A stretch of 31,126 bases of DNA, taken from the UHGV virus genome UHGV-0313797; one strand, given 5' to 3'. Both the position numbers and the translations under genes were made by a program. Of this stretch, positions 1 to 18,805 are shown piece after piece. Position 1 is the stretch's first letter. The number at the start of each line of letters is the position of its first letter. The notes below the pieces were generated by a model that saw nothing but the letters and a program-made list of their open reading frames with translations, did no database searches and had not been told where the DNA came from. This DNA comes from a virus.

Positions 1-111
1 ATGCGGGCAACGGTGTTTAATTATATCGAATGTGATTACAATCGGTGGCGGCGGCACAGTTGGTGTGGCGGCCTCAGTCCGGAACAATTTGAAAACAAGA
101 ACCTCGCTTAG
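1..111 (+). CDS. IS3-family transposase (OrfB), C-terminal fragment, 5'-truncated by the window edge
   Basis: Frame 1 translates to ...[30 protein letters not shown] then stop; this matches the characteristic C-terminal tail of IS3-type integrase-fold transposases. Not in the ORF track because it has no start within the window. Confidence 0.7.
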
Positions 112-141
112 GCCTGTGTCCATATTACGTGGGTAGGATCA
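1..141 (+). mobile_element. Right end of an IS3-family insertion sequence (partial; element continues left of the window)
   Basis: Sequence ends ...CCTCGCTTAGGCCTGTGTCCATATTACGTGGGTAGGATCA at 141, which matches my recollection of the IS3 right terminal inverted repeat; an open frame ending at 111 encodes a transposase C-terminus. Confidence 0.7.
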
Positions 142-262
142 CGCAGGGGTCGGCCCATTTGAGCTTCAGATAGGAACGTTTGAATTCCTTTCACAAAATA
201 CATCACATACTGAACGTGAACATTCCCACTTTGATCTTAAGGCCAAAAAGTATGCAGGACTA

Positions 263-1981
263 ATGATTTTTAGGGATAGCTTGAGAGTATTACCTTATGG
301 TCGAGTAGATAATGATTTCTTCCAGATAGAAGAAAGACGTTCATGGAATGCAGGGCGATATTATTGGTCTAATAGAAGGATTTTTGGTTATATTGGAATT
401 ACTCAATCCAGTAATAAAGAGCTGAAAGATAAGTCGGGGAGAGAGGGATTCATAAGAAACCAGGCTGCAAGAGAACTGAAAACTATTATATCTAATTTGT
501 TAACTGAACTTGCTGATAGATTTTTTGGTTCACGTTCTGATGACCGTAAAGAGCTTTTAGAACAAGTTAAGCGTGAAAAAGAGTTAAGAAAATCTGCTCA
601 ACAACAAGCTCGAAAATCAACACAAAAAAGTTTTTCAGAAGCTTTGAAGAATCAGACACCAGTTCTTGATGCTTCCTTGGAGGCTGTTAAAAGGCTGAAA
701 ACTAAGCTTGATAAAACTGATGGTTCGTTAGATTTAAACTATCTTAAAATTATAGACAGTGATCTTACAAACTTAGATGCGTTGCGCAGTGAAATTAAAA
801 CGCCTATCAAACCTCCAAAACTTGGAATGTATGAAGAGAAATATAGAGACTACAGAGATAAATTTAATGAGTTCTCTGCGTATATTCTACAAATGAAGTT
901 AGCAATTAATAAACTTGATTCTGAATTAAATAAACTTGAGCCTTCATTGTCAGCGAAAAATCACCTTGAAAAAAATCAAGGTATTATTAATTCTAAACTA
1001 ACTAAGTTTAATAACACGATAGAGGAGAAGATACATTCTCTTTTAAAAAAATGGGCCGATGAAATAAAGGTTGATCGAAGTGATTATTATGCTAAAACTA
1101 TATCAGTTGTTGATTCAATAGATAATGATTCACAAATTGAAAATGTGTTTAATTTGCTCGATAGTTTATATGTTGAGTCAGTTGATACCCTAACTTTCAA
1201 ATATCAATCAATAATAAAAGGTCTCGATAGATTATTTGAAGGTATAAACTTAGATTCAGCATTCTCATTATCTGAAGAAGAACGCTCATATTTTGAAGAA
1301 AAAGCTAAAAGTTTAAACGCGCTTGCACAGTTAGGTATTAGTGTTGAGATAATATCTCATGAACTTGAAGAAATGGATTCTATGGTAACCAGAGGACTAA
1401 ACTCTCTTCCTACTTCTGTAAAAGAACACCCTGGTTTTTCATTGGCGTTAAATGCTCACAGATCGCTTACTCAACAAATACGTTTCTTATCACCTTTGAA
1501 AATATCAGGTTATCAATCCAGGCAGAGAATAACTGGAAAAAATATCATGGATTATGTCCTGAAGTTCTTTGGGGAGCGTTTCGAACGGCAACGAATAACT
1601 ATTGAATTTAGTGAAGAGTTTAAGCAAATCGCAATAACAGATATACCATCAAGGATCTATCCTGTTTTTACTAATATTATCAACAATGCAATGTATTGGG
1701 TCAGTCTGTCAAATAATAGGCTCATAAAGATTGGTTTTGTGAATTCTTTGGTTATCATAGCAAATTCTGGTCCGGCAATTGATACCGATGATATCCCGCG
1801 ACTATTTGAACTATTTTATAGCAAAAGAGCAAATGGACATGGGGTAGGTCTGTATCTATGTCGAGAAAACCTTGCTGTTGCACATCATAAAATATGGTAT
1901 TCAGAACCTGATGAAGGCGATAACTATTTAATAAAAGATGGCGCTAATTTTGTGATCCAGTTCAATGGAGTGGAGTTCTAA
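263..1981 (+). CDS. Histidine-kinase-like protein (coiled-coil N-terminal region, HisKA-like H-box, HATPase_c); possibly 5'-truncated by the IS3 insertion
   Basis: 572-aa ORF. C-terminal part shows an H-box-like ISHELEEMDS, an N-box NIINNAMYW, a G1-like IIANSGPAID and a G2 box GHGVGLYLCRE. The same frame stays open upstream from 263 back to position 137, inside the IS end. Confidence 0.6.
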   Translation: MIFRDSLRVLPYGRVDNDFFQIEERRSWNAGRYYWSNRRIFGYIGITQSSNKELKDKSGREGFIRNQAARELKTIISNLLTELADRFFGSRSDDRKELLEQVKREKELRKSAQQQARKSTQKSFSEALKNQTPVLDASLEAVKRLKTKLDKTDGSLDLNYLKIIDSDLTNLDALRSEIKTPIKPPKLGMYEEKYRDYRDKFNEFSAYILQMKLAINKLDSELNKLEPSLSAKNHLEKNQGIINSKLTKFNNTIEEKIHSLLKKWADEIKVDRSDYYAKTISVVDSIDNDSQIENVFNLLDSLYVESVDTLTFKYQSIIKGLDRLFEGINLDSAFSLSEEERSYFEEKAKSLNALAQLGISVEIISHELEEMDSMVTRGLNSLPTSVKEHPGFSLALNAHRSLTQQIRFLSPLKISGYQSRQRITGKNIMDYVLKFFGERFERQRITIEFSEEFKQIAITDIPSRIYPVFTNIINNAMYWVSLSNNRLIKIGFVNSLVIIANSGPAIDTDDIPRLFELFYSKRANGHGVGLYLCRENLAVAHHKIWYSEPDEGDNYLIKDGANFVIQFNGVEF

Positions 1982-1982
1982 T

Positions 1983-3731
1983 ATGACAGTGGCAAATTAT
2001 AATTCTCTTGTCCAGAAAACTTTCTGCGAAAATGCAATTCGTTCCGTTGTCATGATTGATGACGATTTTCTGACGTATTCTGAATCAATCAGGGCGTTGA
2101 ATAACGAAGTTGATTTAGACTACAACAAAATTGACTCATCTAAACGAGCCGCTACTCTTGAGAGCTTTTTTCAATCTAAAAATATGATTTGTGATGTTGA
2201 CAATGGTTCTGTTAATTTCGATGTGGATCGGATTAGAAAATCAGATCTTATTATTGTAGATTATCATCTTGATAATAATGCACCTGATAAAACACTTAAA
2301 CTATTACAAGATTTGAAAGACTCCGATCATTTAAATATGATTGTAATATATACTAGAGAGAATTTAGAAACGGTTTGGATGCAGATATCATCGACTCTCA
2401 AAGGTGCTCTGGATATCAACAGCTTGATCATTGACTACGATAATGAAGATGTCCAAAGTTATTGGGAAGACGTTGTATTACCGAACTTAAATGATAATGG
2501 TAATAAAGCTCTCACAAGAGATGAAACAATAGCCTATATTAAAGACAGTAAGCCTTGTAGAAGAATTAAAAGATTAATACATGATGATGCTGTGTTGAAG
2601 GATCAAAAGGATAAAAACTTCATTGCAAAAATGATTGCAGAATATGCTGTGTCTAGAAATGCAATTATTTCTAGCAACACATCTGGCAATGTCATTCGGG
2701 GTGATGAAAGCGGAGTAAAATGGATTCAATGTGGTAATATCTTTGTCTCCCTATTTCATAAGGTTCAAGATGATCATGAAAACGATGGAGATAGGATTTG
2801 GCAAACTCTCAATGATTCTCTCATTGAATGGAAACCATCTTATTATCAGTTAATAAAATCTGAAATTCAGAATGCAATCGAAGCTGAGGCTTTATCTTTT
2901 GTAAATCATTTGGCTAACGATCATTACGGTCAAGCTGCGTGGTTAAATGAGATATTAAAATCAGACTCGCCTGATATTAGATGTAGAAATATTGACTTTG
3001 TATTTGGTAATTTATCAGAAGAGCTTTATCAAAGACTTAAAAATAATAATACGCTGGATGAATTTATCAAAAGTGTTTTTGATAGCTATTCAAATGAATA
3101 CGCTAACAGCGGAGTTGCTGCATTGCTCCAATATTGCTCTTCAAAAATGGATCTGCCATCAAATAATGATACTTATCACGAAATGTATCATGCTTTAAAT
3201 ATGAATTTGTCTTCAAAGAATTTTGAAGATGGTCATATTTCTACTGGCACTATTTTCTTTGATACAGAGTCGAACAAATGGTATTTATGTGTATCTGCGG
3301 CATGTGATTTGGTTCCTACTCAGGGTAACGACCCTCACCATGTAAGATTAAGTCCGCACAGGCTCATTAAAGTTCTGGAGCTTTTTAACGCCAGTCAGAG
3401 TAAAGCATTGCCATTTGCTGAACATTCGAAATATATATATGTAATGCATAAAAATCAAAGAAAATATCTCTCTATTTTCGAAGGGGATAAAACGCTTCCT
3501 GTTGTTGATTATATGGTGGTGTTGAATCATGGAACAACAGTTGATGGCGAAGAAAAAAATATTATTTCTGCCGTGTTTTTAAGTAATATGGATGGCAACG
3601 TGCAAAATGTTCCTGTCCGACTCAAACTTAAATCTCAACTGAGAACTGGTTATGCAGAAAGATATCAGGCTATAGCGTCTCAGTATAGCTCAAGGATTGG
3701 TGTGGATTATGTATCAATGATGCTACCATAA
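1983..3731 (+). CDS. Receiver (REC)-like domain protein with a large uncharacterized C-terminal region
   Basis: ORF 1965..3731; preferred start is the ATG at 1983, 7 nt after a GGAG. N-terminus has VVMIDDD (acidic pair), then IIVDYHLD (candidate phospho-acceptor Asp) and IVIYT (conserved Thr), a receiver-like pattern with longer spacing than canonical. Residues 150-582 have no motif I recognise. Immediately follows the kinase-like gene. Confidence 0.5.
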   Translation: MTVANYNSLVQKTFCENAIRSVVMIDDDFLTYSESIRALNNEVDLDYNKIDSSKRAATLESFFQSKNMICDVDNGSVNFDVDRIRKSDLIIVDYHLDNNAPDKTLKLLQDLKDSDHLNMIVIYTRENLETVWMQISSTLKGALDINSLIIDYDNEDVQSYWEDVVLPNLNDNGNKALTRDETIAYIKDSKPCRRIKRLIHDDAVLKDQKDKNFIAKMIAEYAVSRNAIISSNTSGNVIRGDESGVKWIQCGNIFVSLFHKVQDDHENDGDRIWQTLNDSLIEWKPSYYQLIKSEIQNAIEAEALSFVNHLANDHYGQAAWLNEILKSDSPDIRCRNIDFVFGNLSEELYQRLKNNNTLDEFIKSVFDSYSNEYANSGVAALLQYCSSKMDLPSNNDTYHEMYHALNMNLSSKNFEDGHISTGTIFFDTESNKWYLCVSAACDLVPTQGNDPHHVRLSPHRLIKVLELFNASQSKALPFAEHSKYIYVMHKNQRKYLSIFEGDKTLPVVDYMVVLNHGTTVDGEEKNIISAVFLSNMDGNVQNVPVRLKLKSQLRTGYAERYQAIASQYSSRIGVDYVSMMLP

Positions 3732-3802
3732 TTATTATATTTTAGGCGTGGTGATTTTTTTTCGCCATGCCTATTTTATATTTATCATCACAATGATGTT
3801 GT

Positions 3803-4219
3803 TTATTTTTGTTTAAGTCTTCTAAGCTTCATGCATTCTAATGAGAATAATAATAGAGTTGTGCTGTATATAAAGCCAGAGTTAGTTAATAACTTTAAAT
3901 TTAATGCTTCAGGATTTTCACTGAGAAAGTGAAAGGCATAAACTAAGTATACAGCTAAAGTAGCCGTTCCAATTGTTGGTCCAATATCGCCTTGATCATG
4001 AGGTTCAAGGTTTACATTGAACTTGAAGATTAGCCATTCAAATCCCCAAGTAAAAAAAACAACTAATATCATGGCTGCGAATAATTTCGCGATGTTATCT
4101 GCTGATGGATTCATCAGAACAGATTGTTTCTGAAAAAATTCACAAAGTGAGAGTCCGAAAAAAATAAAAAAAAGTGGTCTGGAACTAAATTTTTCAAAAA
4201 CTTTGAATAGGGTTTCCAT
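3803..4219 (-). CDS. Small hydrophobic (membrane) protein, hypothetical
   Basis: 138-aa ORF with several hydrophobic stretches (LFFIFFGLSL, FAAMILVVFFTWGF, TATLAVYLVYAF); AGG-type RBS upstream of the ATG; AT-rich. Confidence 0.45.
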   Translation of the reverse strand: METLFKVFEKFSSRPLFFIFFGLSLCEFFQKQSVLMNPSADNIAKLFAAMILVVFFTWGFEWLIFKFNVNLEPHDQGDIGPTIGTATLAVYLVYAFHFLSENPEALNLKLLTNSGFIYSTTLLLFSLECMKLRRLKQK

Positions 4220-4257
4220 TTTCTTTACCTTCAGGATTATATTAGCTATTCTGATAC

Positions 4258-5487
4258 TTAGGCTACCAGAGCATTTGATCTTTGAGCTTGAAGGTAATCA
4301 CTCCACCATTGCATCAAACTCTGTCGCTCTATCAGATATTCTGCACGATTGTATGCTGCGATAATTTCATCTTTTTTCGAGTGGGCAAGCGCTGCCTCAA
4401 GAACTTCAGCTCTGAATTTACCAGACTCCTCTGCCGCTGTTCGTGCAATAGAACGCATACCGTGAGCTACAAGCTCGCCTCCGAACCCCATTCGGATGAT
4501 AGCTGCGTTGGCTGTTTGTTCATGCATATGATTAAGAGGCGCTTTTATGCTGGGGAAAACCCATTCTCTATGCCCACTTATTGATTTCATTAATTCAAGG
4601 ATGCGCAAAGCTTCTTTACTCAAAGGAACTTTGTGAAGCTTTTTCATTTTCATGAAATCAGCAGGAATGTTCCAAATGCTGTTGGTTGTATCAATATCAG
4701 ACCACCTTGCGCGAACGGCTTCACCCGGACGAACCCATGTCAACAATTGCCATTCAATTAGCATACGTGTTTCCAACCGGATTGACGCATTCGTCAAAGA
4801 TTCCATAAACCTTGGCAATTCGCTTGGGGGAAGGGCAGGCATATTTTGCTTTTTTGGTTTACTGAATCTTTGACCAAGGTTGTCAGCCGGGTTGAACTCA
4901 ATAAGTTCTTCAGTAGCTGCCCACCGGAAGATTTCATTCAGACGTGAAATGATACGGCGTAGAGTTTCCAATACGCCTCGTTGCTCAATAGGATCAAGGT
5001 GTTGTTTTAAGAGCTTAGGTCGGATCTCATTGATAGGGACATTACCCAGACCGGGAAAGACATTTCTCTCTAAGCTGCGCCAGATGTCTGCTGCATGGTC
5101 TTGTGAGATACCTGATGTCTTTACCTTCTCATCTAACCATTTCCGCGCTACGGCTTGGAGAGTGTGCTCAGTAGCACTCTTTAATGCCTTCGCCTTATCG
5201 TTGTTATGGATTTGGGGATCAACACCATTTGCCAGAAAGGAGAGATATTCATCACGTAAGGCTCTGGCTCTTGCAAGGGTAAGGTGAGGATATGTCCCAA
5301 GGCTCATTTTGGTTCTTTTCTTGCTCACTGGTACTGCATACCTGAAATACCAATTTTTCTTGCCTCCTTTCGCCAAAGGAGCGATTCGTAGAATCAGACC
5401 ATCACCGTCAAACAAGTTGATTTCTTTATCGGCTGGCTTGGTGCTTTTGATTTCAGTGTCAGTGAGCTTCTTAGCGATTTTTGCCAT
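4258..5487 (-). CDS. Tyrosine recombinase, P4-type integrase family
   Basis: ORF 4258..5529 trimmed to the ATG preceded by GGAGGG (MAKIAKKLTDTEIKS...). N-terminus resembles the P4-integrase N-terminal domain (LTDTEIKSTKPADKE...LFDGDGLILRI); catalytic-domain-like C-terminus (HGMRSIARTAAEE, AHS...AAYNRAEY). Sits directly downstream of a tmRNA 3' end copy, as CP4-57 intA does at ssrA. Confidence 0.85.
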   Translation of the reverse strand: MAKIAKKLTDTEIKSTKPADKEINLFDGDGLILRIAPLAKGGKKNWYFRYAVPVSKKRTKMSLGTYPHLTLARARALRDEYLSFLANGVDPQIHNNDKAKALKSATEHTLQAVARKWLDEKVKTSGISQDHAADIWRSLERNVFPGLGNVPINEIRPKLLKQHLDPIEQRGVLETLRRIISRLNEIFRWAATEELIEFNPADNLGQRFSKPKKQNMPALPPSELPRFMESLTNASIRLETRMLIEWQLLTWVRPGEAVRARWSDIDTTNSIWNIPADFMKMKKLHKVPLSKEALRILELMKSISGHREWVFPSIKAPLNHMHEQTANAAIIRMGFGGELVAHGMRSIARTAAEESGKFRAEVLEAALAHSKKDEIIAAYNRAEYLIERQSLMQWWSDYLQAQRSNALVA

Positions 5488-5652
5488 TTTGGGACCCTCG
5501 GTTTTTGGACCCTTCTTAGTGGGTCCCATTCAGGGTGCCATAACTCGTAGTTCTCAGCAATTCTCACTGGACGACAATAGACGTAAAAAAGCCCGCAGAG
5601 CTTGTGCTGTGTGGGCTTAGTAGACTTCATTGAACTTCAAACAACTAAAAAG

Positions 5653-5752: not shown

Positions 5753-6844
5753 TTAGACTGTGTTAGGCATTTTTACGTCGTTAAACTTCTTTGTCGCCAT
5801 TTTGCCGCCACTGGAAGCTTTTATAACGTTAGGCTTTGTATATTTATCCCAGTGAGGAGAATAAATCGGACAATCAAGTGTAATATATTGATCAAAAAGA
5901 AATCTAAAGTCTGTTTCATATATATAATTAATTATATGTTCATACGGAGCTAATTCGGCACCATAAATTATCGTTTTTATTTTTCTTGTTAGATATATAC
6001 TTGCCTCAACGAATTCAAGAAAAGCATTTTCTTCGTGAGCAAAAGTAATAATACTGTATTCATTGATCGATATTTTATATCTTGCCCGCATAATACTGTC
6101 GATACAGAGCTTTTCAAAAATCATGGCTGTTTTGTTAGAAACAGAATTTATTATTCTAAGGTACTCCAGTGGTTTATTTTCTGGGGCCAGTTTCCTTGGT
6201 TTTAGTGCGTTATCTATATCTCTAAGTAATACTTCTATTTCTTCTAGGAACTTGCTGCTTGGTTCGAAGTTAGATAGGCTGTGTGGGGCTGAGTTGGGGT
6301 ATATTTTTTTATAGAGCAAGTAAGGATTTGTAATTTTAACTTGATCGGTAGTTGCTATTTTTTCATTATCAATTTCCTTGGACGAAATGATGCTTCCATC
6401 TTTGTTAGATAGATTTAAAATTGTGAAAGTAGATAAGTGGTTTATTTTTTCGATGAAGTTTTTTTCATGAGCCAAATATCTGTCAACGGCATTTTTGCTA
6501 TCAGCTGCTTGTATTTGTGCTTCGGTTTGAATTGTGCGATGAATATTGTTTACTATCGATGCGAGAGGAACAGAACTTGCTAGTAGCAATAAAGGAAACT
6601 TGCTGATCTCATAAAATCTAAAATATCCGTGAGCAGTGAGGACAGGTGTTTTTCCACTCCATGCAAAGTAACCAAAGTAAAAAAATGAAAAAACAGGAAG
6701 TAAAATCGATAACCAAAATAATTTTTGGCGGTATAGATTTCTTTTGTCTAACTTGTACCATCTCCTCCAAATGGAAATGATTAAAATTAATATAATTATT
6801 GTTGCATAAATATAAATGTATATATGGTCAGGATATGTTTTCAT
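5753..6844 (-). CDS. Membrane-anchored hypothetical protein; cargo gene translationally coupled to the prophage integrase
   Basis: 363-aa ORF; its ATG overlaps the int stop codon (ATGA overlap at 6841-6844). N-terminal predicted TM segments (ATIIILILIISIW, LFWLSILLPVFSFFYFGYFAW, FPLLLLASSVPLASIV) followed by about 270 soluble residues with no recognised motif. Visibly AT-rich compared with neighbouring phage genes. Confidence 0.6.
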   Translation of the reverse strand: MKTYPDHIYIYIYATIIILILIISIWRRWYKLDKRNLYRQKLFWLSILLPVFSFFYFGYFAWSGKTPVLTAHGYFRFYEISKFPLLLLASSVPLASIVNNIHRTIQTEAQIQAADSKNAVDRYLAHEKNFIEKINHLSTFTILNLSNKDGSIISSKEIDNEKIATTDQVKITNPYLLYKKIYPNSAPHSLSNFEPSSKFLEEIEVLLRDIDNALKPRKLAPENKPLEYLRIINSVSNKTAMIFEKLCIDSIMRARYKISINEYSIITFAHEENAFLEFVEASIYLTRKIKTIIYGAELAPYEHIINYIYETDFRFLFDQYITLDCPIYSPHWDKYTKPNVIKASSGGKMATKKFNDVKMPNTV

Positions 6845-7865: not shown

Positions 7866-8498
7866 TTAGATACTCTTTATTACTTTGACTGCGCGCCCAA
7901 TAATTTCCACATCATCAGCAGAACACTCGAAAGACGCTTCATCTTGATTTACTACAATCTTATTGCCGGGAATCCGCATGATTTTTGCAATAATAATCAT
8001 TCCATCAATATTGATTAGCCAGAATCCATTGCTGACTTGTTTAACTGATTTATCGATGAGATAACAATCAGTTGGGGTTTCTAAGAACATCGATTCTTCA
8101 TAATGTGCAGGTAATATGCTGTGGTCTAGGAAAATATCTTCATCAATACTGAGTTTTCCATTCTCTAAGGTTCCTTTAGGAATAGATGGAGTTATGAGTT
8201 TGGATAGTGGTTTAATTGCTTGTTTGTTCTCATTATGAGATCTTTTCTCAGGCTCACATCCTCCTTTCATGCTTCCCTGGCCTGTAGCTAACCAAAGCAA
8301 CGAAACACCGGTTTCTAGTGCGCACTGAATTATCCAGTCAGCAGGAAAACTGTCGCGTAACACTCTGTTTGCCATAGTGCTTTTTGAGACATTCAGGTGC
8401 TCGCTTAATGCCTGCTTAGTTGTGAATCCATAAGCCTCAAGCAGCCTCTCAATAGCTGCCTTGCCTCCCGTATCGGAACCCATTCTGATGTTTAACAT
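7866..8498 (-). CDS. cI: Immunity repressor, phage 186 CI-like
   Basis: ORF 7866..8546 trimmed to the ATG preceded by GGAGA (MLNIRMGSD...). N-terminal HTH-like region (CALETGVSLLWLATGQG) resembles 186 CI; divergent from apl and upstream of int as in 186. Confidence 0.75.
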   Translation of the reverse strand: MLNIRMGSDTGGKAAIERLLEAYGFTTKQALSEHLNVSKSTMANRVLRDSFPADWIIQCALETGVSLLWLATGQGSMKGGCEPEKRSHNENKQAIKPLSKLITPSIPKGTLENGKLSIDEDIFLDHSILPAHYEESMFLETPTDCYLIDKSVKQVSNGFWLINIDGMIIIAKIMRIPGNKIVVNQDEASFECSADDVEIIGRAVKVIKSI

Positions 8499-8619
8499 TG
8501 GTAATCTCCATTTGAAAATCTTGAGTCGAGATCGTAATGTCTTCATGTCTCTTGATGTGAGAGTTTAAGAGACGGACTAAAACGAACTAACACGCACACA
8601 AAGTAAGAGATACTGCACT
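8499..8619. promoter_or_regulatory. Lysis-lysogeny switch region (expected face-to-face lytic and lysogenic promoters with operators)
   Basis: 121-bp intergenic region between the divergent cI and apl genes; call is by position and analogy to the 186/P2 switch. Individual promoter hexamers were not resolved. Confidence 0.4.
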
Positions 8620-8862
8620 ATGAGTACTGATATTTCAATTCGTGTACCAAAAGAGATGGCTACGCCTGCAGAGTTCGCAGAGTGGGAGGGCATTTCCCGT
8701 GGCTCTGTTTACCAAAAAATTCACCATGGCCAACTTGCTAAATACATGGTCAAGAAAGAAAAAAACAAAGGCCGCGTAAGCCTGCGTTATCTGATGTACA
8801 AAACCGATCAGGTCCGTGAATCCCTCGGTCATTCCAACTTCCGTGTCATTGTTGGTAAGTAA
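8620..8862 (+). CDS. apl: Apl/Cox-like excisionase and transcriptional regulator
   Basis: 80-aa ORF, first gene of the rightward early operon; size and position correspond to 186 apl / P2 cox. Confidence 0.65.
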   Translation: MSTDISIRVPKEMATPAEFAEWEGISRGSVYQKIHHGQLAKYMVKKEKNKGRVSLRYLMYKTDQVRESLGHSNFRVIVGK

Positions 8863-10994: not shown

Positions 10995-11848
10995 GCACCA
11001 TCCTGAAATGGGCGGGAAATAAAACCGCCATTATGCCAGAACTGAAAAAACACCTTCCAGCTGGCCCGCGACTGGTTGAACCTTTCGCGGGTTCCTGTGC
11101 GGTGATGATGGAGACGGATTATCCAAGCTATCTGGTTGCGGATATTAATCCTGATTTAATCAACCTCTATAAAAAGGTTGCCGCTGATTGTGAATCGTTT
11201 ATATCTCGCGCCAGAGTTTTATTTGAGAACGCAAACAGGGAGGTAGCTTATTACAACATAAGGCAGGAGTTTAATTACTCAACTGAAATTACTGATTTCA
11301 TGAAAGCGGTATATTTCCTGTATCTCAATCGTCACGGTTACCGTGGTTTATGTCGCTATAACAAGAGCGGGCATTTCAATATTCCCTACGGTAATTATAA
11401 AAATCCGTATTTCCCTGAAAAAGAAATTCGCGCATTTGCAGAAAAAGCCCAGCGGGCAACGTTTATCTGCGCCAGCTTTGATGAAACGCTGGCGATGTTG
11501 AAGGCGGGGGATGTGGTGTATTGCGATCCGCCTTATGACGGTACGTTTTCCGGCTATCACACTGATGGTTTCACTGAAGATGACCAGTATCACCTGGCAT
11601 CCGTTCTTGAACATCGATCATCTGAAGGACATCCGGTCATTGTTTCTAACAGTGACACATCCCTGATTCGTTCGCTGTATCGCAATTTTACTCACCACTA
11701 TATCAAGGTAAAACGCAGCATCGGTGTGGCAGCTGGCGAGTGTAAATCAGCAACAGAAATCATCGCTGTTTCCGGGCCGCGCTGCTGGGTGGGATTTGAT
11801 CCTTCGCGTGGCGTGGATAGTTCTGCCGTGTACGGAGTGCGTGCATGA
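10991..11848 (+). CDS. dam: DNA adenine methyltransferase, Dam family
   Basis: ORF 10919..11848 trimmed to the ATG after [16 protein letters not shown]..., [28 protein letters not shown] and catalytic VYCDPPY align closely with E. coli Dam. Confidence 0.9.
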
Positions 11849-14259
11849 GCCATGCTGATATGAACAACTGCAGCGGCTTTAACGAGGTCGCAGCAGCATT
11901 CTCATGGAGCAGCCCGAAAAAGGCCATTAACCCTTATCTGGACCCGGCGGAAGTTGCGCCGGTTTCTGCGCTTTCAAACCTGATCACTCTGTACGCTGCC
12001 GATAACGAGCAGGAACAGCTGCGCCGTGAGGCGCTGAGTGATCAGGTCTGGGAGCGTTATTTCTTTAATGAATCCCGTGATCCTGTCCAGCGCGAAATCG
12101 AGCAGGATAAGCTCATTAGTCGGGCAAAGCTGGCGCATGAGCAGCAGCGTTTTAATCCGGATATGGTCATTCTGGCGGACGTCAACGCCCAGCCTTCCCA
12201 TATCAGCAAGCCGCTGATGCAACGTATTGAATACTTCAGCAGCCTGGGCAGGCCAAAGGCTTATTCCCGCTATTTGCGTGAGACGATTAAGCCATGTCTG
12301 GAACGACTGGAGCATGTACGCGAGAGTCAGCTATCCACTTCTTTTCGCTTTATGGCAAGCCATGAAGGGCTGGACGGCCTGCTGATCCTGCCTGAAATGA
12401 GTCAGGATCAGGTGAAGCGCCTGTCTACCCTTGTTGCCGCGCATATGAGCATGTGCCTTGATGCAGCTTGTGGTGATTTGTATGCCACCGATGACGTTAA
12501 GCCAGAAGAAATCCGCAAGACATGGGAAAAGGTGGCAGCGGAAACCCTGCGTCTGGATGTAATCCCTCCTGCGTTTGAGCAACTCCGTCGGAAAAGAAAC
12601 CGCCGTAAACCCGTGCCCTATGAACTCATTCCGGGTTCGCTGGCGCGTATGTTGTGCGCCGACTGGTGGTATCGGAAATTATGGAAGATGCGTTGCGAAT
12701 GGCGGGAAGAGCAGTTGCGTGCTGTCTGCCTGGTCAGCAAAAAAGCATCTCCCTATGTCAGCTATGAAGCCGTGATGCATAAACGTGAGCAGCGCCGTAA
12801 GTCGCTGGAGTTTTTCCGTTCTCATGAACTGGTGAACGAAGACGGCGACACGCTGGACATGGAGGATGTGGTAAACGCCAGCAGCAGCAACCCGGCGCAT
12901 CGCCGCAATGAGATGATGGCCTGTGTTAAAGGTCTGGAGCTTATCGCGGAAATGCGCGGTGACTGCGCCGTTTTCTACACCATCACCTGTCCGTCACGTT
13001 TCCATTCCACGCTCAATAACGGCAGACCAAACCCGACCTGGACAAACGCGACGGTAAGACAAAGCAGCGATTATCTGGTCGGCATGTTTGCTGCATTTCG
13101 TAAGGCGATGCACAAAGCCGGGTTGCGCTGGTATGGCGTGCGGGTGGCTGAGCCGCATCATGACGGCACAGTTCACTGGCACCTGTTGTGTTTCATGCGC
13201 AAAAAAGACCGCCGTGCCATCACTGCATTACTGCGTAAGTTTGCCATCCGTGAAGACCGCGAGGAGCTGGGCAATAACACTGGGCCGCGCTTTAAGTCTG
13301 AGTTGATTAACCCGCGCAAAGGAACGCCAACAAGCTACATCGCGAAATACATCAGTAAGAACATTGACGGGCGTGGTCTGGCTGGCGAGATCAGCAAGGA
13401 AACGGGGAAATCCCTGCGTGATAATGCTGAATACGTTAATGCCTGGGCGTCTCTGCATCGTGTTCAGCAATTCCGCTTCTTTGGCATTCCGGGGCGTCAG
13501 GCTTACCGTGAACTGCGATTGCTGGCTGGTCAGGCGGCAAGGCAACAGGGGGACAAAAAAGCAGGTGCGCCGGTACTGGATAACCCACGCCTTGATGCCA
13601 TCCTGGCTGCTGCTGATGCTGGTTGTTTTGCCACCTACATCATGAAGCAGGGCGGCGTACTGGTTCCCCGCAAATATCACCTCATCAGAACCGCTTATGA
13701 AATCAACGAAGAGCCGACCGCCTATGGCGATCACGGCATTCGTATTTATGGCATCTGGTCACCTATTGCAGAGGGCAAGATCTGCACTCATGCCGTGAAG
13801 TGGAAAATGGTTCGTAAGGCCGTTGATGTTCAGGAGGCGGCAGCTGACCAGGGCGCTTGCGCCCCTTGGACTCGTGGCAATAACTGTCCCCTTGCTGAAA
13901 ATTTGAACCAACAGGAGAAAAACAAATCAGCTGATGGGGATACCAGAACGGATATCACCCGCATGGATGACAAAGAGTTGCACGAATACCTGCACAGTAT
14001 GAGCAAAAAAGAGCGCCGGGAACTGGTAGAAAGGTTACGCCTGGTTAAACCGAAACGGCGTAGAGACTACAAACAGCGAATTACAGACCATCAACGACAG
14101 CAGCTCGTCTATGAACTGAAATCCAGAGGATTTGATGGCAGCGAGAAAGAGGTCGATTTACTCCTTCGCGGCGGCAGTATTCCGTCAGGAGCAGGCCTGC
14201 GTATCTTCTATCGGAACCAGCGTTTGCAGGAAGATGATAAGTGGCGGAACCTGTATTAA
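11845..14259 (+). CDS. A: Replication initiation endonuclease, P2 gpA family (rolling-circle initiator)
   Basis: 804 aa, last gene of the early operon; contains [13 protein letters not shown] (HUH-type metal-binding motif) and downstream tyrosines (SYIAKYISK); position before the cargo locus matches P2/186 gene A. Confidence 0.85.
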
Positions 14260-14351
14260 TTACGCTGGTTAACAATTCGTGCTCTTAATAATACCAGGCA
14301 TATCAGGCTGATAAGCGTAAAAAAACGTTTTACATCAGTAAGATTATTATA

Positions 14352-14371
14352 TACTGTAAATATAAACAGTG
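14352..14371. promoter_or_regulatory. LexA (SOS) box
   Basis: TACTGTAAATATAAACAGTG: CTGT-N8-ACAG with an AT-rich spacer, matching the LexA consensus; lies about 40 bp upstream of the small ORF at 14413. Confidence 0.6.
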
Positions 14372-14412
14372 GTTATGCATACAGTATTGCGTGTGGTGTC
14401 ATAGGAGGAAAG

Positions 14413-14601
14413 ATGCAGGACTATTTTTTGGAGTCTTTGAAGCTCCAGCGCATTGATTTTTTTCTTAAGCTTGTAGCGGCTAGTGAGTGCGATGATGAAG
14501 AGAAGCGGCTTGCTATCCAGTGGGTTTCGGAGCTGACCGATGAGTTAATGGCGAAAATCCGTACTCATGAGTACAACCGTTCAATGGATCTCCCCGGTTA
14601 G
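14413..14601 (+). CDS. Small SOS-controlled protein; candidate Tum-like antirepressor
   Basis: 62-aa ORF with a strong RBS (AGGAGG, 6 nt spacer); preceded by the LexA box; in the position of the LexA-regulated tum gene of phage 186. Sequence identity to Tum was not verified. Confidence 0.45.
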   Translation: MQDYFLESLKLQRIDFFLKLVAASECDDEEKRLAIQWVSELTDELMAKIRTHEYNRSMDLPG

Positions 14602-15186
14602 GCTTAGGAACGTTGCTGGCGTTAGGACTTGATTCTGACGCTAGCAAGGTTGATCAACGAGCCATGCGAGGCGTTAGTCATGGGCAAAAAAATAGTAACT
14701 TCCAGATTTTGTTTCGTGCCAGGTATTGAGTAGTTTTATCGCCAGAGGGGCTGTTAGCGCTCAAACTACTAATGGAGCCACACCTTAGATGAGTGATTTG
14801 GCTTAAGCTATGATTATATAGTTTCGCTGTACGGCGGCCTTGCTTTTTATTGAAGCGACCAGACTGGAACAACGGCGAAAGGAGACTAACGATACGCACC
14901 AGTTTTTTGAAAAGGTACAGTTATCTAGATTGGTTGCCAATTTTCGTTGAAACCTGACATACCATTAGGTCATTGCTTTAGAAAAATTAATACTTGATGT
15001 GAGAATTGCTTCAAAACATCTAGAATTAAAATTTCTTTACTAGTATGCTTCACCACTTGGTCGTTGGGTTGAGTGCAAAAGCTAAGGCTGATGCCCAGTA
15101 CGCTATCCGCATTATTGCCAGAGAACCGATTCGAAACCGGAATCTGGCAGAGCATGGGCGCAAGTGCTGGCTTCCCAACGGCCTCG

Positions 15187-16155
15187 TTATTTATAATATG
15201 CTGACTTCAAAACCACTCGTCTTTCAACCTGCTGTGATAGCATTACCGCGTTAGTCCAATCTTTTGGATACCTTATTTCTTCTATAACACGAATATAAGC
15301 ACATACTTTATTTTTTCCTTCTCCTTTGGCATAAGTAACCTCTAGATTATTAAATTTCAATAAGTGCTCTCTTCTTTGGTAAGTAAAACAGCCGTAATCA
15401 CGGACATCAGAAGAAGTAATAGCATGAGTTGAAGGAAACCGAACTAGTAAATTTCTCAAGTAGGGAATAATGTCCAAACTCGTTGCTTTGTTTTCTTCTC
15501 TGCGACTCTTTCTGAACATATGTCTCCAACCCAGCCGTGTAAGCTCGATTTTCCCAAGCACCGGAGATGTGATTTCTTTCTGTTCAGAATAACGTTTTTT
15601 AACAAACGCTCGCCGATTATTAAGTAGTGAGTTTCTTCTTCTTACATGGATTCCTTTTGCTCCAGTTTCACCTGCACGTATCATGGACATACAGCGAGCC
15701 AGGTCAAACCGTGTAGCCGGAGTGATTAAGTGATATTCTCCATAAGTTTGGTTTTTAAGGGTAGTGTTTGGATGTATATAGGCCCAAAATGCTTTACGAT
15801 TAGTTCTGTCAACCCAAACGACACATATATGGTGAGTTGTCCTTTTGGCTGCTTTTTTTGCGGCCGAATTTAATACAAAACCTTTCTCTAATAAATGACC
15901 ATAAGTTGCCCCTGATTTAACTTGCGACAATATAAGCATTCTTTCTTTTGATGCCCATGGATGTTCGAAGGATAATATTAAATCTATTTTTGAATTGTCG
16001 TCTTCCCTGGAACCCCAGTGCCCCTCTCCTCTACAAGCAAGAATGAATTGACTCATTGCATAAGATTCGGCGTCACTGCCGTTAACTGAGTTAAACTGTC
16101 TTGTTTCTAGCACAGTTGGTATTGGTCGTGATGCAAGTAAACTGAAAGATCCCAC
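15187..16155 (-). CDS. Uncharacterized cargo protein in the A-Q variable locus; possible PD-(D/E)xK-like N-terminal region
   Basis: 322-aa ORF starting at a GTG 8 nt downstream of GGAGAG. AT-rich. N-terminal region has GEGHWGSREDDNSKIDLILSFEHP...ERMLILSQVKSG, a D...(Q)xK pattern compatible with a restriction-endonuclease-like fold; a strongly basic segment (IHVRRRNSLLNNRRAFVKKRYSEQKE) follows. No confident family assignment. Confidence 0.55.
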   Translation of the reverse strand: MGSFSLLASRPIPTVLETRQFNSVNGSDAESYAMSQFILACRGEGHWGSREDDNSKIDLILSFEHPWASKERMLILSQVKSGATYGHLLEKGFVLNSAAKKAAKRTTHHICVVWVDRTNRKAFWAYIHPNTTLKNQTYGEYHLITPATRFDLARCMSMIRAGETGAKGIHVRRRNSLLNNRRAFVKKRYSEQKEITSPVLGKIELTRLGWRHMFRKSRREENKATSLDIIPYLRNLLVRFPSTHAITSSDVRDYGCFTYQRREHLLKFNNLEVTYAKGEGKNKVCAYIRVIEEIRYPKDWTNAVMLSQQVERRVVLKSAYYK

Positions 16156-16592
16156 TTATAGTTCTCTCCAAAAAATTGCATAATCTCGAACGCTAAAAAA
16201 TAGTATACAAACTAAAGTATTTTTTCATTTAATTCAATGTATTGGCTAAAATTAAGACATTTATAGCTATATGTACTAGATAACATAGCGTTGTTTTCCT
16301 TTTGAAATCTCTTCTTGTGGTAACACAACAGTATTTACTCAAGTAGTTTGTCACTGCATGGGGAGATTTCGCTATGTCCGCGGCATCATACAGATGCGAT
16401 AGATTTTCAGCATGACCTTGGGTAGCAAATCTGTAGGTATCATCCATTGCACCTCAAAGTAACTCTGGTGCATACCTATGCTGCATGAAAATGAATGATC
16501 GCTAGTGGATCGTTTATGTCGAAGCCTGCCAGTTCTGACGGGCTTTTGCTTATGTTATGCAACTGCATGAAAACCACTACACAAAGCGGGCA

Positions 16593-16611
16593 GGCGTGGC
16601 GGGGATACGAG
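16593..16611. other. Candidate cos site (cohesive-end sequence of the P2/186-like genome)
   Basis: GGCGTGGCGGGGATACGAG shares its first 13 nt with the 19-nt cohesive end of phage 186 (GGCGTGGCGGGGAAAGCAT, from memory) and lies in the A-Q interval where P2-like prophages carry cos. Confidence 0.45.
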
Positions 16612-16719
16612 CGCGCGCTGTATGCCTGAAGTGGCTAAAATAGTATCTGTCATAGGTACAACTTAGTGTAGTATCATCCATATAATCCATTGAAATATAA
16701 TCGACTCTCATTAGAGGTG

Positions 16720-17718
16720 ATGATGAACGGAATCTGGTACGAAAACACTCATACACGCATTCCTAATTTTGAAACAACAGTACATCAAAAGCACAAATTC
16801 GGTTACGCTTATGAAACAACAAGTCATTTTGTGCATCTGTATGGGCGTGACGTGGGATTTAATGTAATATCAGTTGGGTTAACTGTTATTGAGCAACGAA
16901 GTGGAACTCTCAATGATTGGGTTCGGAGAGTATTTGGGGCTCAGAACATATCTCCTTTAGATAATGAAATTGGACATGTAACTAGGGGAGTGTGGCGGCC
17001 ATCCTTATATTATGTCAATGATACAGAAACAGCATTAGGTATCGATGAGTTTGAAAAAAGAGCAACAGAGCAAGCTCTAAGAGTTTTGATAGAAAAACTC
17101 GATGATATTTTTCTATATGTAGAACCAAGTGCCCATGGTTTGATTTCTTACAGTCATAAATGTAGAGAGCTATTAATTCTTGCTTGTACTGAGGTTGAAA
17201 ATCAATGGGTGTCAATCATTGGTAATTCGAATTTATCTCGTTCAAATGGTCGATACTCCACAAATGATTATGTGAAATTATTAGATAAGTGTTATTTGTC
17301 TGAATATAAAATTCAATATTTGAATTATGACGGATTAAGGCATTTCAAACCTTTTGATGGGTGGAATGCAAGTACCCCTACAACATCTTTGTCATGGTAT
17401 AATGCATATAATAAAACTAAACATGATAGATCAGGAGCATTCCACTTTTCCACTTTAGAAAATGTAATGGATGCAGTTGCTGCTTGTGTTGTAATGTACT
17501 GTGTAAAATATGGCCCGTTTAGCTTATTGGAAGCCAATACGTCTCTATCAACGATCGTTAATCAAAACTTTTCAATTTCATTAGATAATAGCAATCCAGC
17601 AAGTTATTACATTCCTGAAATTGAACTTCCACCGGATACAAGAACGGATTTATTAATTTATGATTGTTATCGAGAAAACCATAATAAAGCATGGGTCACT
17701 GATCCCCTAGTGCTCTAA
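16720..17718 (+). CDS. Uncharacterized cargo protein with a HEPN-like Rx4H motif; candidate abortive-infection effector
   Basis: ORF 16690..17718 trimmed to the ATG after AGAGGTG (MMNGIWYENTH...). AT-rich. C-terminal region has YNKTKHDRSGAFHFSTLENVMDAVAAC; RSGAFH fits the R-x4-H signature of HEPN RNase domains. Single-motif evidence only. Confidence 0.55.
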   Translation: MMNGIWYENTHTRIPNFETTVHQKHKFGYAYETTSHFVHLYGRDVGFNVISVGLTVIEQRSGTLNDWVRRVFGAQNISPLDNEIGHVTRGVWRPSLYYVNDTETALGIDEFEKRATEQALRVLIEKLDDIFLYVEPSAHGLISYSHKCRELLILACTEVENQWVSIIGNSNLSRSNGRYSTNDYVKLLDKCYLSEYKIQYLNYDGLRHFKPFDGWNASTPTTSLSWYNAYNKTKHDRSGAFHFSTLENVMDAVAACVVMYCVKYGPFSLLEANTSLSTIVNQNFSISLDNSNPASYYIPEIELPPDTRTDLLIYDCYRENHNKAWVTDPLVL

Positions 17719-17728
17719 TTTCCTGCTA

Positions 17729-17758
17729 AAGGGAGCTTTTAATTATAAACGCTCCCTT
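17729..17758. terminator. Hairpin between convergent genes (possible bidirectional terminator)
   Basis: Perfect 8-bp inverted repeat AAGGGAGC / GCTCCCTT around a 14-nt AT-rich loop, located between the stops at 17718 (+) and 17775 (-); no clear U-tract. Confidence 0.35.
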
Positions 17759-17774
17759 CGGTTGTCGCTATTTA

Positions 17775-18748
17775 TTATATATCAATAGAGTTTTGAAATT
17801 TTAATAACTGCCATCTTGTTAATAGTGGTTTTATTGCTATGTTGTGTTGGGTATTTATTTTTAAACCTTCGAATTTCGAATATCCATTTTCCAAGGCTTC
17901 CACTGAAAAATGAATGGTTTTTGTTATCGGGTTTATAGCACAAAGATTTAGGTTATATAAAGTATGAATGTCACTTCTGAGCAATAATCCATTGCTAATA
18001 TGATTGTGACTATCGTTTCGATATACATTAATGTGAGCAGCATCAAGAATATCAACAAGCTTACAGCCCATAACCGCACAAGTAGGATTTGATTTTAATA
18101 GCTGGTCGCGAAATGTTTTTTGCCCACTTCGTTGTTTTATTTGCCGTTCTACAATTTGCCGTTGATCTTCACCCATTAAAGTGGGGGTGTCTTTATCAGC
18201 TTCGCTGGCGTTGAGCTCCAGAATAATAGTATGTTGGGCGGTAAGCAAAGCAACAGCCCATTGATAGTTAACTTCTTGGATGGACATTTGCCCATTGTAG
18301 CGTGGAGTTTCATCTATAAATTGTGACATTGTAATATTGGATAATTTACGGTACTGGTTGCCGCAGTATGCTATAAATTCTTTAGCTGGCTCAAAAACCA
18401 CTCTGGGTTCATCAAATTCATGGCCATTATCACAACGCCACTCTGATTTTATAGTTTTCCTTTGAAGAATTTTTTTGCTTTGCAGTCTAGGTTAATACAT
18501 TTGTTACGCTTCTTATTAATGCTCTGTGTTTCTAATTTTTCAATAACAGATATACCTAAAATATTTTCTCTGTTGGTAATAATAATAATATCACCGTCTT
18601 TTACATTTTTGTGGTTCGCTACAAAACTGTCATAGCGATAGAAAACTGATGAGTCATCGGGATAACTATCATTTCCCCAGTATCTAAGATCGTCTTTCTC
18701 AATTGCCTTAAAAAAAACCATACTTGCTGTACCATGAACTTTTCCCAC
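17775..18748 (-). pseudogene. HNH-family endonuclease (HNH_2-like) split by a frameshift in a homopolymer tract
   Basis: Two consecutive minus-strand ORFs (18449..18748 and 17775..18401) overlap in different frames around a run of 7 A (minus strand) at 18470-18476; one extra A would fuse them into about 320 aa. Downstream part has CAVMGCKLVDILDAAHINVYRNDSHNHISNGLLLRSDIHTLYNLN (C..C...AHI....SNGL.L...H..Y), the signature of McrA-like HNH nucleases. Confidence 0.6.
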
Positions 18749-18805
18749 TAATCAAATTTTGGTTTGTTCTATCGAACAGCAAAGCATGTTGATATACAAG
18801 AGAAA

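Follow-up and report, generated by a model that had tools for sequence, protein, structure and literature searches.

A candidate LexA-controlled tum operon, reduced to its TumA-type gene, in a P2-like prophage of Escherichia coli

A short open reading frame (ORF) of 62 codons follows replication gene A in the prophage described here, and a LexA (SOS) box lies in front of it. Are the site and the gene real, and what would the product do in the life of the prophage? The earlier note on this DNA pointed out a consensus-quality SOS box about 40 bp upstream of a small ORF with an AGGAGG ribosome-binding site. It proposed a minimal or divergent SOS-triggered antirepressor in the position of tum of phage 186, or else a different SOS-induced function. 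We have analyzed this locus in the context of the window, which is the whole stretch of 31,126 nucleotides. Our reading, to which we give a probability of roughly 0.9, is that positions 14329-14651 form a LexA-controlled SOS operon, and that its product, a Tum antirepressor, would inactivate the 186-type CI repressor and induce the prophage.

The window consists of a segment of the E. coli chromosome and a P2-like prophage of the 186/Fels-2 type. The phage integrase (6841-7863) and the 186-type CI immunity repressor (7866-8546; Pfam Phage_CI_repr, E = 2e-30, and Phage_CI_C, E = 1e-30) are both encoded on the minus strand. The gene in the Cox/Apl position (8620-8862) is followed, in this order, by those for CII (CP76), Fil, DUF5347, DUF2732, TraR/DksA and a Dam methylase. 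Replication gene A is located on the plus strand at 11845-14259 (Pfam Phage_GPA, E = 1e-127). The putative SOS operon, reduced to one gene, is on the same strand and starts about 70 nt past the gene A stop codon. With the ATG of the ORF at 14413, the placement immediately after gene A is borne out.

Further genes are found on the integrase side of the prophage. A 363-aa ORF (5753-6844, minus strand) without a match in Pfam or PADLOC adjoins the phage integrase, on its far side from cI; in related prophages, this position is taken by other cargo, for example an ASCH-domain protein or a KAP NTPase. Positions 1-5620, left of the prophage, contain an IS3 transposase end, a 138-aa gene, genes for an 'ATP-binding protein' and, paired with it, a 'response regulator receiver domain' protein (263-3731 for the pair), as well as a second integrase-domain gene (4258-5487, minus strand). 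This region looks like a separate integrative island adjoining the prophage.

The LexA box, TACTGTAAATATAAACAGTG, is located at 14352-14371 and agrees with the consensus at 17 of 20 positions. Its core, CTGT-N8-ACAG, covers 14354-14369, and 41 nt separate the end of the box from the ATG. The core alone is weak evidence: it is found once in the window, compared to an expectation of 0.37, and at that rate box and ORF might be a chance juxtaposition without any function. However, the full consensus 20-mer TACTGTATATATATACAGTA, with up to three mismatches allowed, has just this one match in the window and none in 100 shuffles. Moreover, among 35 loci gathered from different enterobacterial species, each encoding a relative of the 62-aa ORF, CTG-N10-CAG is present at the homologous position in 32. 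The three exceptions are a contig with too little upstream sequence, a box broken by a 1-nt insertion, and a pseudogene. The consensus quality of the box is therefore upheld, and all the positions given in the earlier note are correct.

The box is part of what reads as a p95-like SOS promoter. An A-tract (14320-14325, plus strand) precedes the −35 hexamer TTTACA (14329-14334). The −10 element, TACTGT (14352-14357), begins 17 nt after this hexamer and is identical to the first six bases of the LexA box, as in p95 of phage 186. This promoter escapes a scan for consensus promoters, since TACTGT fits the −10 consensus at only three of the six positions. In an alignment of 40 distinct upstream regions, the conserved islands are the A-tract, the TTTAC(A) −35 element (TTTAC being nearly invariant), ATACTGT...ACAGT, and the GGAGG of the ribosome-binding site; the 17-nt spacer, the interior of the box, and the flanks vary. 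At the level of the sequence, this is a LexA operator overlapping a p95-type promoter.

The ORF itself (14413-14601, plus strand; stop codon at 14599-14601) has the Shine-Dalgarno sequence AGGAGGA (14403-14409) located 3 nt before its ATG, in agreement with the earlier note, and the GGAGG of this sequence is conserved across the loci. Pairwise comparisons with 11 homologues give dN/dS values of 0.04-0.10, with dS reaching 0.6-2. These values mark the ORF as a real gene under strong purifying selection. Taken together, the conservation of the box and the promoter, the shuffle result, and the selection on the ORF indicate that the site and the gene are both real. The LexA box is confirmed as a true site and not a product of chance, and with the box, the promoter, and the ORF all conserved across genera, a chance juxtaposition is effectively refuted.

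A second, degenerate LexA box may be present next to the first one. This candidate, CAGTGGTTATGCATACAGTA (14367-14386; 14 of 20 consensus positions), overlaps the first box by 5 nt and is formed by GTGG at 14369 and by ATACAGT at 14380-14386. Its right half is the conserved part. The motif (A/T)ATACAGT, about 8 nt past the first box, is kept in most of the Enterobacteriaceae loci, often with a consensus-like spacer, and many of them have a perfect ATATATAT. The loci of 186 and of the Pantoea type are without this second motif. It is possible that (A/T)ATACAGT serves as a second LexA site.

The 62-aa protein is predicted by AlphaFold2 to be a two-helix hairpin, with helices at residues 2-23 and 28-58 and a mean pLDDT of 90. 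A search of the Protein Data Bank with this model, using Foldseek, finds only generic helical hairpins with E values above 1, and a sequence-profile search of the same database finds no match. Pfam, NCBIfam, and PADLOC give nothing meaningful for the ORF. There is no match to the DinI fold or sequence either (Pfam DinI, and the C-terminal part of phrog_189), which places the protein outside the DinI family as judged from these comparisons.

The relationship of this protein to 186 Tum is detected with profiles. BLASTP of the window ORF against 186 Tum and against PSP3 TumA gives no alignment, and the homology to both of them thus rests on the profile matches. The window ORF matches phrog_698 (1e-36), phrog_8554 (8e-8), and phrog_1993 (0.005). 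Residues 1-70 of 186 Tum match phrog_1993 (2e-23), phrog_8554 (3e-12), and phrog_698 (7e-6), aligned position for position, and PSP3 TumA matches phrog_1993 at 3e-32. In addition, hhalign places residues 4-43 of a 22-sequence alignment of the family on residues 4-43 of 186 Tum, with an E value of 0.0018. These matches support homology, at the profile level, between the 62-aa ORF and PSP3 TumA as well as the N-terminal (non-DinI) half of 186 Tum, with which the identity is about 18%. Aligning the ORF with 186 Tum and Fels-2 homologues, as the earlier note had advised, has a mixed outcome: it fails with BLASTP against 186 Tum, and it succeeds with the profiles and with SopEPhi orf10, which is 87% identical to the window ORF.

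The organization of the locus is similar to that in phage 186, in whose annotation gene A is followed by the p95 promoter, with a LexA site over a TACTGT −10 element, and then by tum, in the position that the earlier note had given for it. The −35 element of p95 is TTCACA, compared to TTTACA in the window. Gene A followed by tum is also the layout of PSP3, SopEPhi, Cartapus, and the E. coli HS prophage DuoHS. There are clear differences from 186, however. Tum of 186 has 146 residues, of which the C-terminal 76 form a fused DinI-like part, and its gene has internal starts. The 186 operon also includes orf97 and a classical terminator, t95a. In the annotation of 186, the full-length Tum 'inhibits CI DNA binding', and the truncated, DinI-only products are modulators of induction. 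For Tum of coliphage 186, PMC3121763 and PMC7708051 cite Shearwin et al. (1998).

The two halves of Tum are encoded separately in several relatives. The PSP3 record describes tumA as 'similar to 5' end 186 tum; UV induction of prophage' and tumB as 'similar to dinI and 3' end of 186 tum'. The split operons of PSP3, SopEPhi, and Fels-2 contain a LexA box, an antirepressor gene of about 60 codons, and a gene for a 77-aa DinI-like protein; orf10 and orf11 of SopEPhi are this same pair. The equivalent of TumB/orf11, present in all three, is absent from the window. The primary source on the split tum of Fels-2 and PSP3 is reportedly Bunny et al. (2002). A paper on the phylogeny of the regulatory genes of P2-like phages (PMC3448106) does not mention tum. 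Lemire et al. (2011; PMC3121763) describe 186 Tum as resembling a fusion of an antirepressor with DinI. They state that tum of Fels-2 and PSP3 is split by a stop codon and, citing a personal communication at second hand, that the upstream gene of PSP3 carries the antirepressor activity. Position, promoter architecture, profile homology, the type of the cognate repressor, and near-identity to a tested gene (see below) are the grounds for membership in the Tum/TumA group. On these grounds we identify the 62-aa ORF with the upstream half of the 186 Tum antirepressor, in the split (TumA) form, and its shortness compared to 186 Tum, already noticed in the first look at this DNA, is that of the split form.

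The tested gene is that of DuoHS. According to the Phollow study (PMC12055606), neither an in-frame deletion of 'tum' in this prophage, in which the start and stop codons are fused, nor a lexA(Ind-) background allows lysis or the production of virions after mitomycin C, and a supplement to the study gives the locus tag of the gene as ECHS_RS04495. In RefSeq, this tag belongs to a 189-bp gene for a 'hypothetical protein', flanked by the genes for the replication endonuclease and a DinI-like protein. Its product has 62 residues and is 92% identical to the window ORF. The −35 element, the LexA box, and the ribosome-binding site of DuoHS are base-for-base identical to those in the window, and the two prophages share the position of tum after gene A and a CI of the 186 type. 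They differ in three respects. The last 25 or so codons of tum diverge (ending in MDLPG in the window and MDVIS in DuoHS), a DinI-like gene lies 10 nt downstream of tum in DuoHS, and the identity between the two CI proteins is only 41%.

The presence of that downstream gene in DuoHS brings up a different assignment of roles, in which the DinI-like protein is the true antirepressor of the split system and the 62-aa protein a helper, such that the window would have lost its antirepressor. The databases name only the DinI-like half, to the point that 186 Tum carries the label 'RecA filament binding protein DinI', and it is conceivable that the deletion of DuoHS tum has a polar effect on the DinI-like gene, which starts 10 nt further on. 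The text searched of PMC12055606 contains no complementation of this deletion. On the other hand, the deletion is in frame as described there, the annotation of 186 assigns the inhibition of CI to the full-length protein and not to the DinI-only products, and the antirepressor activity of PSP3 is reported for the upstream gene. Moreover, many lineages retain tumA and the LexA box without dinI. We consider this assignment of roles very improbable.

With the 62-aa protein as the antirepressor, induction would proceed as follows. In the lysogen, tum would be silenced by the host LexA, bound to the box over the −10 element of the p95-like promoter. Upon DNA damage, activated RecA would lead to the self-cleavage of LexA. 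The strongly translated, TumA-type protein of 62 residues would then accumulate and bind or sequester the 186-type CI, which would leave its operators, and the derepressed early lytic promoter would bring about induction of the prophage. Sequestration is the mode of action on the 186-type CI given for 186 Tum in PMC3121763 and PMC7708051. By analogy, we infer LexA binding at this site, contact between Tum and CI, and inducibility of this prophage. Binding of CI by Tum, and the need for Tum in SOS induction, are likewise expected from the biochemistry of 186 Tum and from the requirement for the 92%-identical orthologue in DuoHS. The 186-like layout, the profile homology, and this orthologue all speak for the minimal antirepressor proposed in the earlier note, and the different SOS-induced function that it offered as an alternative is not needed.

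The logic of such a circuit is similar to that of GfoA and GftA of the Gifsy prophages and AntC of N15, where a LexA-repressed small protein inactivates a non-cleavable repressor. In comparison, no sequence relationship between these proteins and the window protein is seen, and their repressors belong to another family. The Gifsy operon also contains a dinI homologue, as described in PMC3121763, and dinI is the first gene there, unlike the order in the split tum operons.

The lack of the DinI-like gene, which goes beyond what the earlier note had observed, is the most distinctive aspect of the locus. In Cartapus, SopEPhi, the Klebsiella phages, DuoHS, and most of the E. coli prophages, a gene for a 77-aa DinI-like protein is located 10 nt past tum. 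An alignment of the window with relatives shows that this gene is missing between 14601 and 14609, where the end of tum is joined to the sequence that follows the stop codon of the DinI-like gene in the relatives (TAAGGAACGTT...). A tblastn search of the whole window finds no DinI-like coding sequence. The arrangement is shared with others: about 15 of the 35 species-level loci have no DinI-like gene, including a clade in which Tum ends in LPG like that in the window. Among 5426 complete E. coli genomes, the tum region is present in 1101 and the junction without dinI in 35. A recent, private deletion of dinI was considered and rejected, as these 35 genomes share the same junction and it recurs, at 9-20% divergence, in other genera. 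Among the 35 genomes are some with apparently complete prophages that carry other cargo.

Two strains reveal how this state came about. Up to about 13.9 kb, the prophage of E. coli MS1665 (locus L046) matches the window almost completely, with nearly the same sequence for the integrase, CI, and gene A. Beyond this point, it has a different 3' end of tum, a DinI-like gene, and other cargo. In strain SW071614 (locus L005), tum, the hairpin that follows it (see below), and the flanking sequence are as in the window, together with a different CI in a deleted remnant prophage. The two comparisons indicate that the tumA-only state arrived by mosaic recombination, an exchange of the right-hand module with its breakpoint in or near tum. 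Its effect on the phage is probably one of degree. Because the DinI-only products of 186 are annotated as modulators, the loss of tumB would probably tune induction rather than abolish it.

The 3' end of the putative operon is formed by a hairpin of 18 bp without a U-tract (14609-14651, plus strand), located directly after tum, with the sequence AAC-G-TTGCTGGCGTTAGGA / CTTGA / TTCTGACGCTAGCAA-G-GTT. The z-score of the RNA fold is −3.27. Across 11 distinct loci, 93.9% of the cells are paired, compared to 31-45% in slid controls, and four pairs show compensatory changes. The hairpin directly follows tum in the loci without dinI; where a DinI-like gene is present, it follows that gene instead. 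A search of the whole window against Rfam finds no family, and the hairpin thus is not a described RNA. A terminator scan detects only weak terminator-like sites, at 14824-14838. The hairpin is probably a terminator or an mRNA-stabilising structure, and it may be the left border of a cargo hotspot.

A cargo island with a GC content of 33-43% (about 14690-18800) separates the SOS operon from the portal gene and occupies the position of the tin/old hotspot of P2. Its onset lies directly after ATGGGCAAAAAAA (14680-14692), which corresponds to the first four codons of a gene found in phage Cartapus. The island encodes a 322-aa protein without a family match (minus strand), a 342-aa protein of phrog_19461, function unknown (plus strand), a 208-aa HNH_2 protein (minus strand), and a 99-aa protein (minus strand). 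Sister prophages have TIR, GTPase, and HIRAN-domain cargo at the same position.

The presumed target of Tum is the CI of the same prophage, a cognate 186-type CI without a LexA-like self-cleavage domain. It is 30% identical to 186 CI (E = 3e-34), and a 186-type CI is encoded upstream of tum in 28 of the 32 genome loci examined. By analogy, the pair formed by Tum and this CI would be functional, with a CI that is only 41% identical to the tested one of DuoHS. This low identity, however, is also one of the observations that could be read differently, with tum still SOS-induced here and no longer serving as an inducer. The prophage would then be non-inducible or weakly inducible, through the loss of the DinI-like gene or a mismatch with CI, and the protein would be a leftover or have some other role at the time of the SOS response. 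The absence of the DinI-like gene from the window is consistent with such a loss of function. So is the recombination of the module (the 3' part of tum, the hairpin, and the cargo) to a site beside an immunity region that is accompanied by a different tum allele and dinI in MS1665, and an identical Tum is encoded by the clearly defective remnant in SW071614. Against this reading, the ORF is under strong purifying selection, and the dinI-less arrangement recurs in the species-level loci and the apparently complete prophages noted above. The DinI-like part of 186 only 'modulates' induction according to the annotation, and deletions of dinI in Gifsy have no effect on induction, as stated in PMC3121763. 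In addition, near-identical Tum proteins occur with many CI variants, a pattern that speaks for broad recognition and against frequent mismatch. We therefore regard a Tum that has ceased to act as an inducer in this prophage as unlikely.

Broad recognition is also hinted at by the variation among the loci. Tum is 72-100% identical across loci L005 to L043. In the accompanying CI proteins, the N-terminal domain is 57-83% identical (40% in one locus), and the C-terminal domain only 26-57%. Moreover, two different, heteroimmune CI proteins occur with one and the same Tum. This pattern suggests that Tum targets a conserved surface of CI and could cross-induce other prophages. As a tentative extension, for which the odds are well below even, TumA might be a broad-spectrum antirepressor that acts on the conserved N-terminal DNA-binding domain of CI, works without its DinI-like partner, and cross-induces heteroimmune P2-like prophages. 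If this is true, the tumA-only operon here would be a naturally minimal induction module.

The system to which the operon is assigned is already known, with a close orthologue characterised, and the locus is otherwise ordinary apart from the lost DinI-like partner. Its annotation is far behind. The Tum family has no Pfam or NCBIfam model, and the 485 clusters of homologues are all 'hypothetical' or misnamed, none with a precomputed Pfam domain; some members carry the wrong name 'levan regulatory (domain) protein'. Homologues are often modelled with 87-101 residues from an upstream start, with a 'coding' region that spans the LexA box. An example is the 96-aa 'levan regulatory domain protein' of the Klebsiella phage ST11-OXA245phi3.1 (positions 2899-3189 of locus L004). 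In the window, an in-frame stop codon excludes this long form of the gene.

As a result, a gene that 1101 of 5426 complete E. coli genomes carry, or about one in five, and that has been shown by experiment to control the induction of a prophage, is still 'hypothetical'. The importance of the locus beyond annotation is small. By analogy with its relatives, the SOS response would very probably induce this prophage of E. coli through the 186/Fels-2 route, and the tumA-only variant offers a naturally occurring case in which the contribution of the DinI-like half can be studied.
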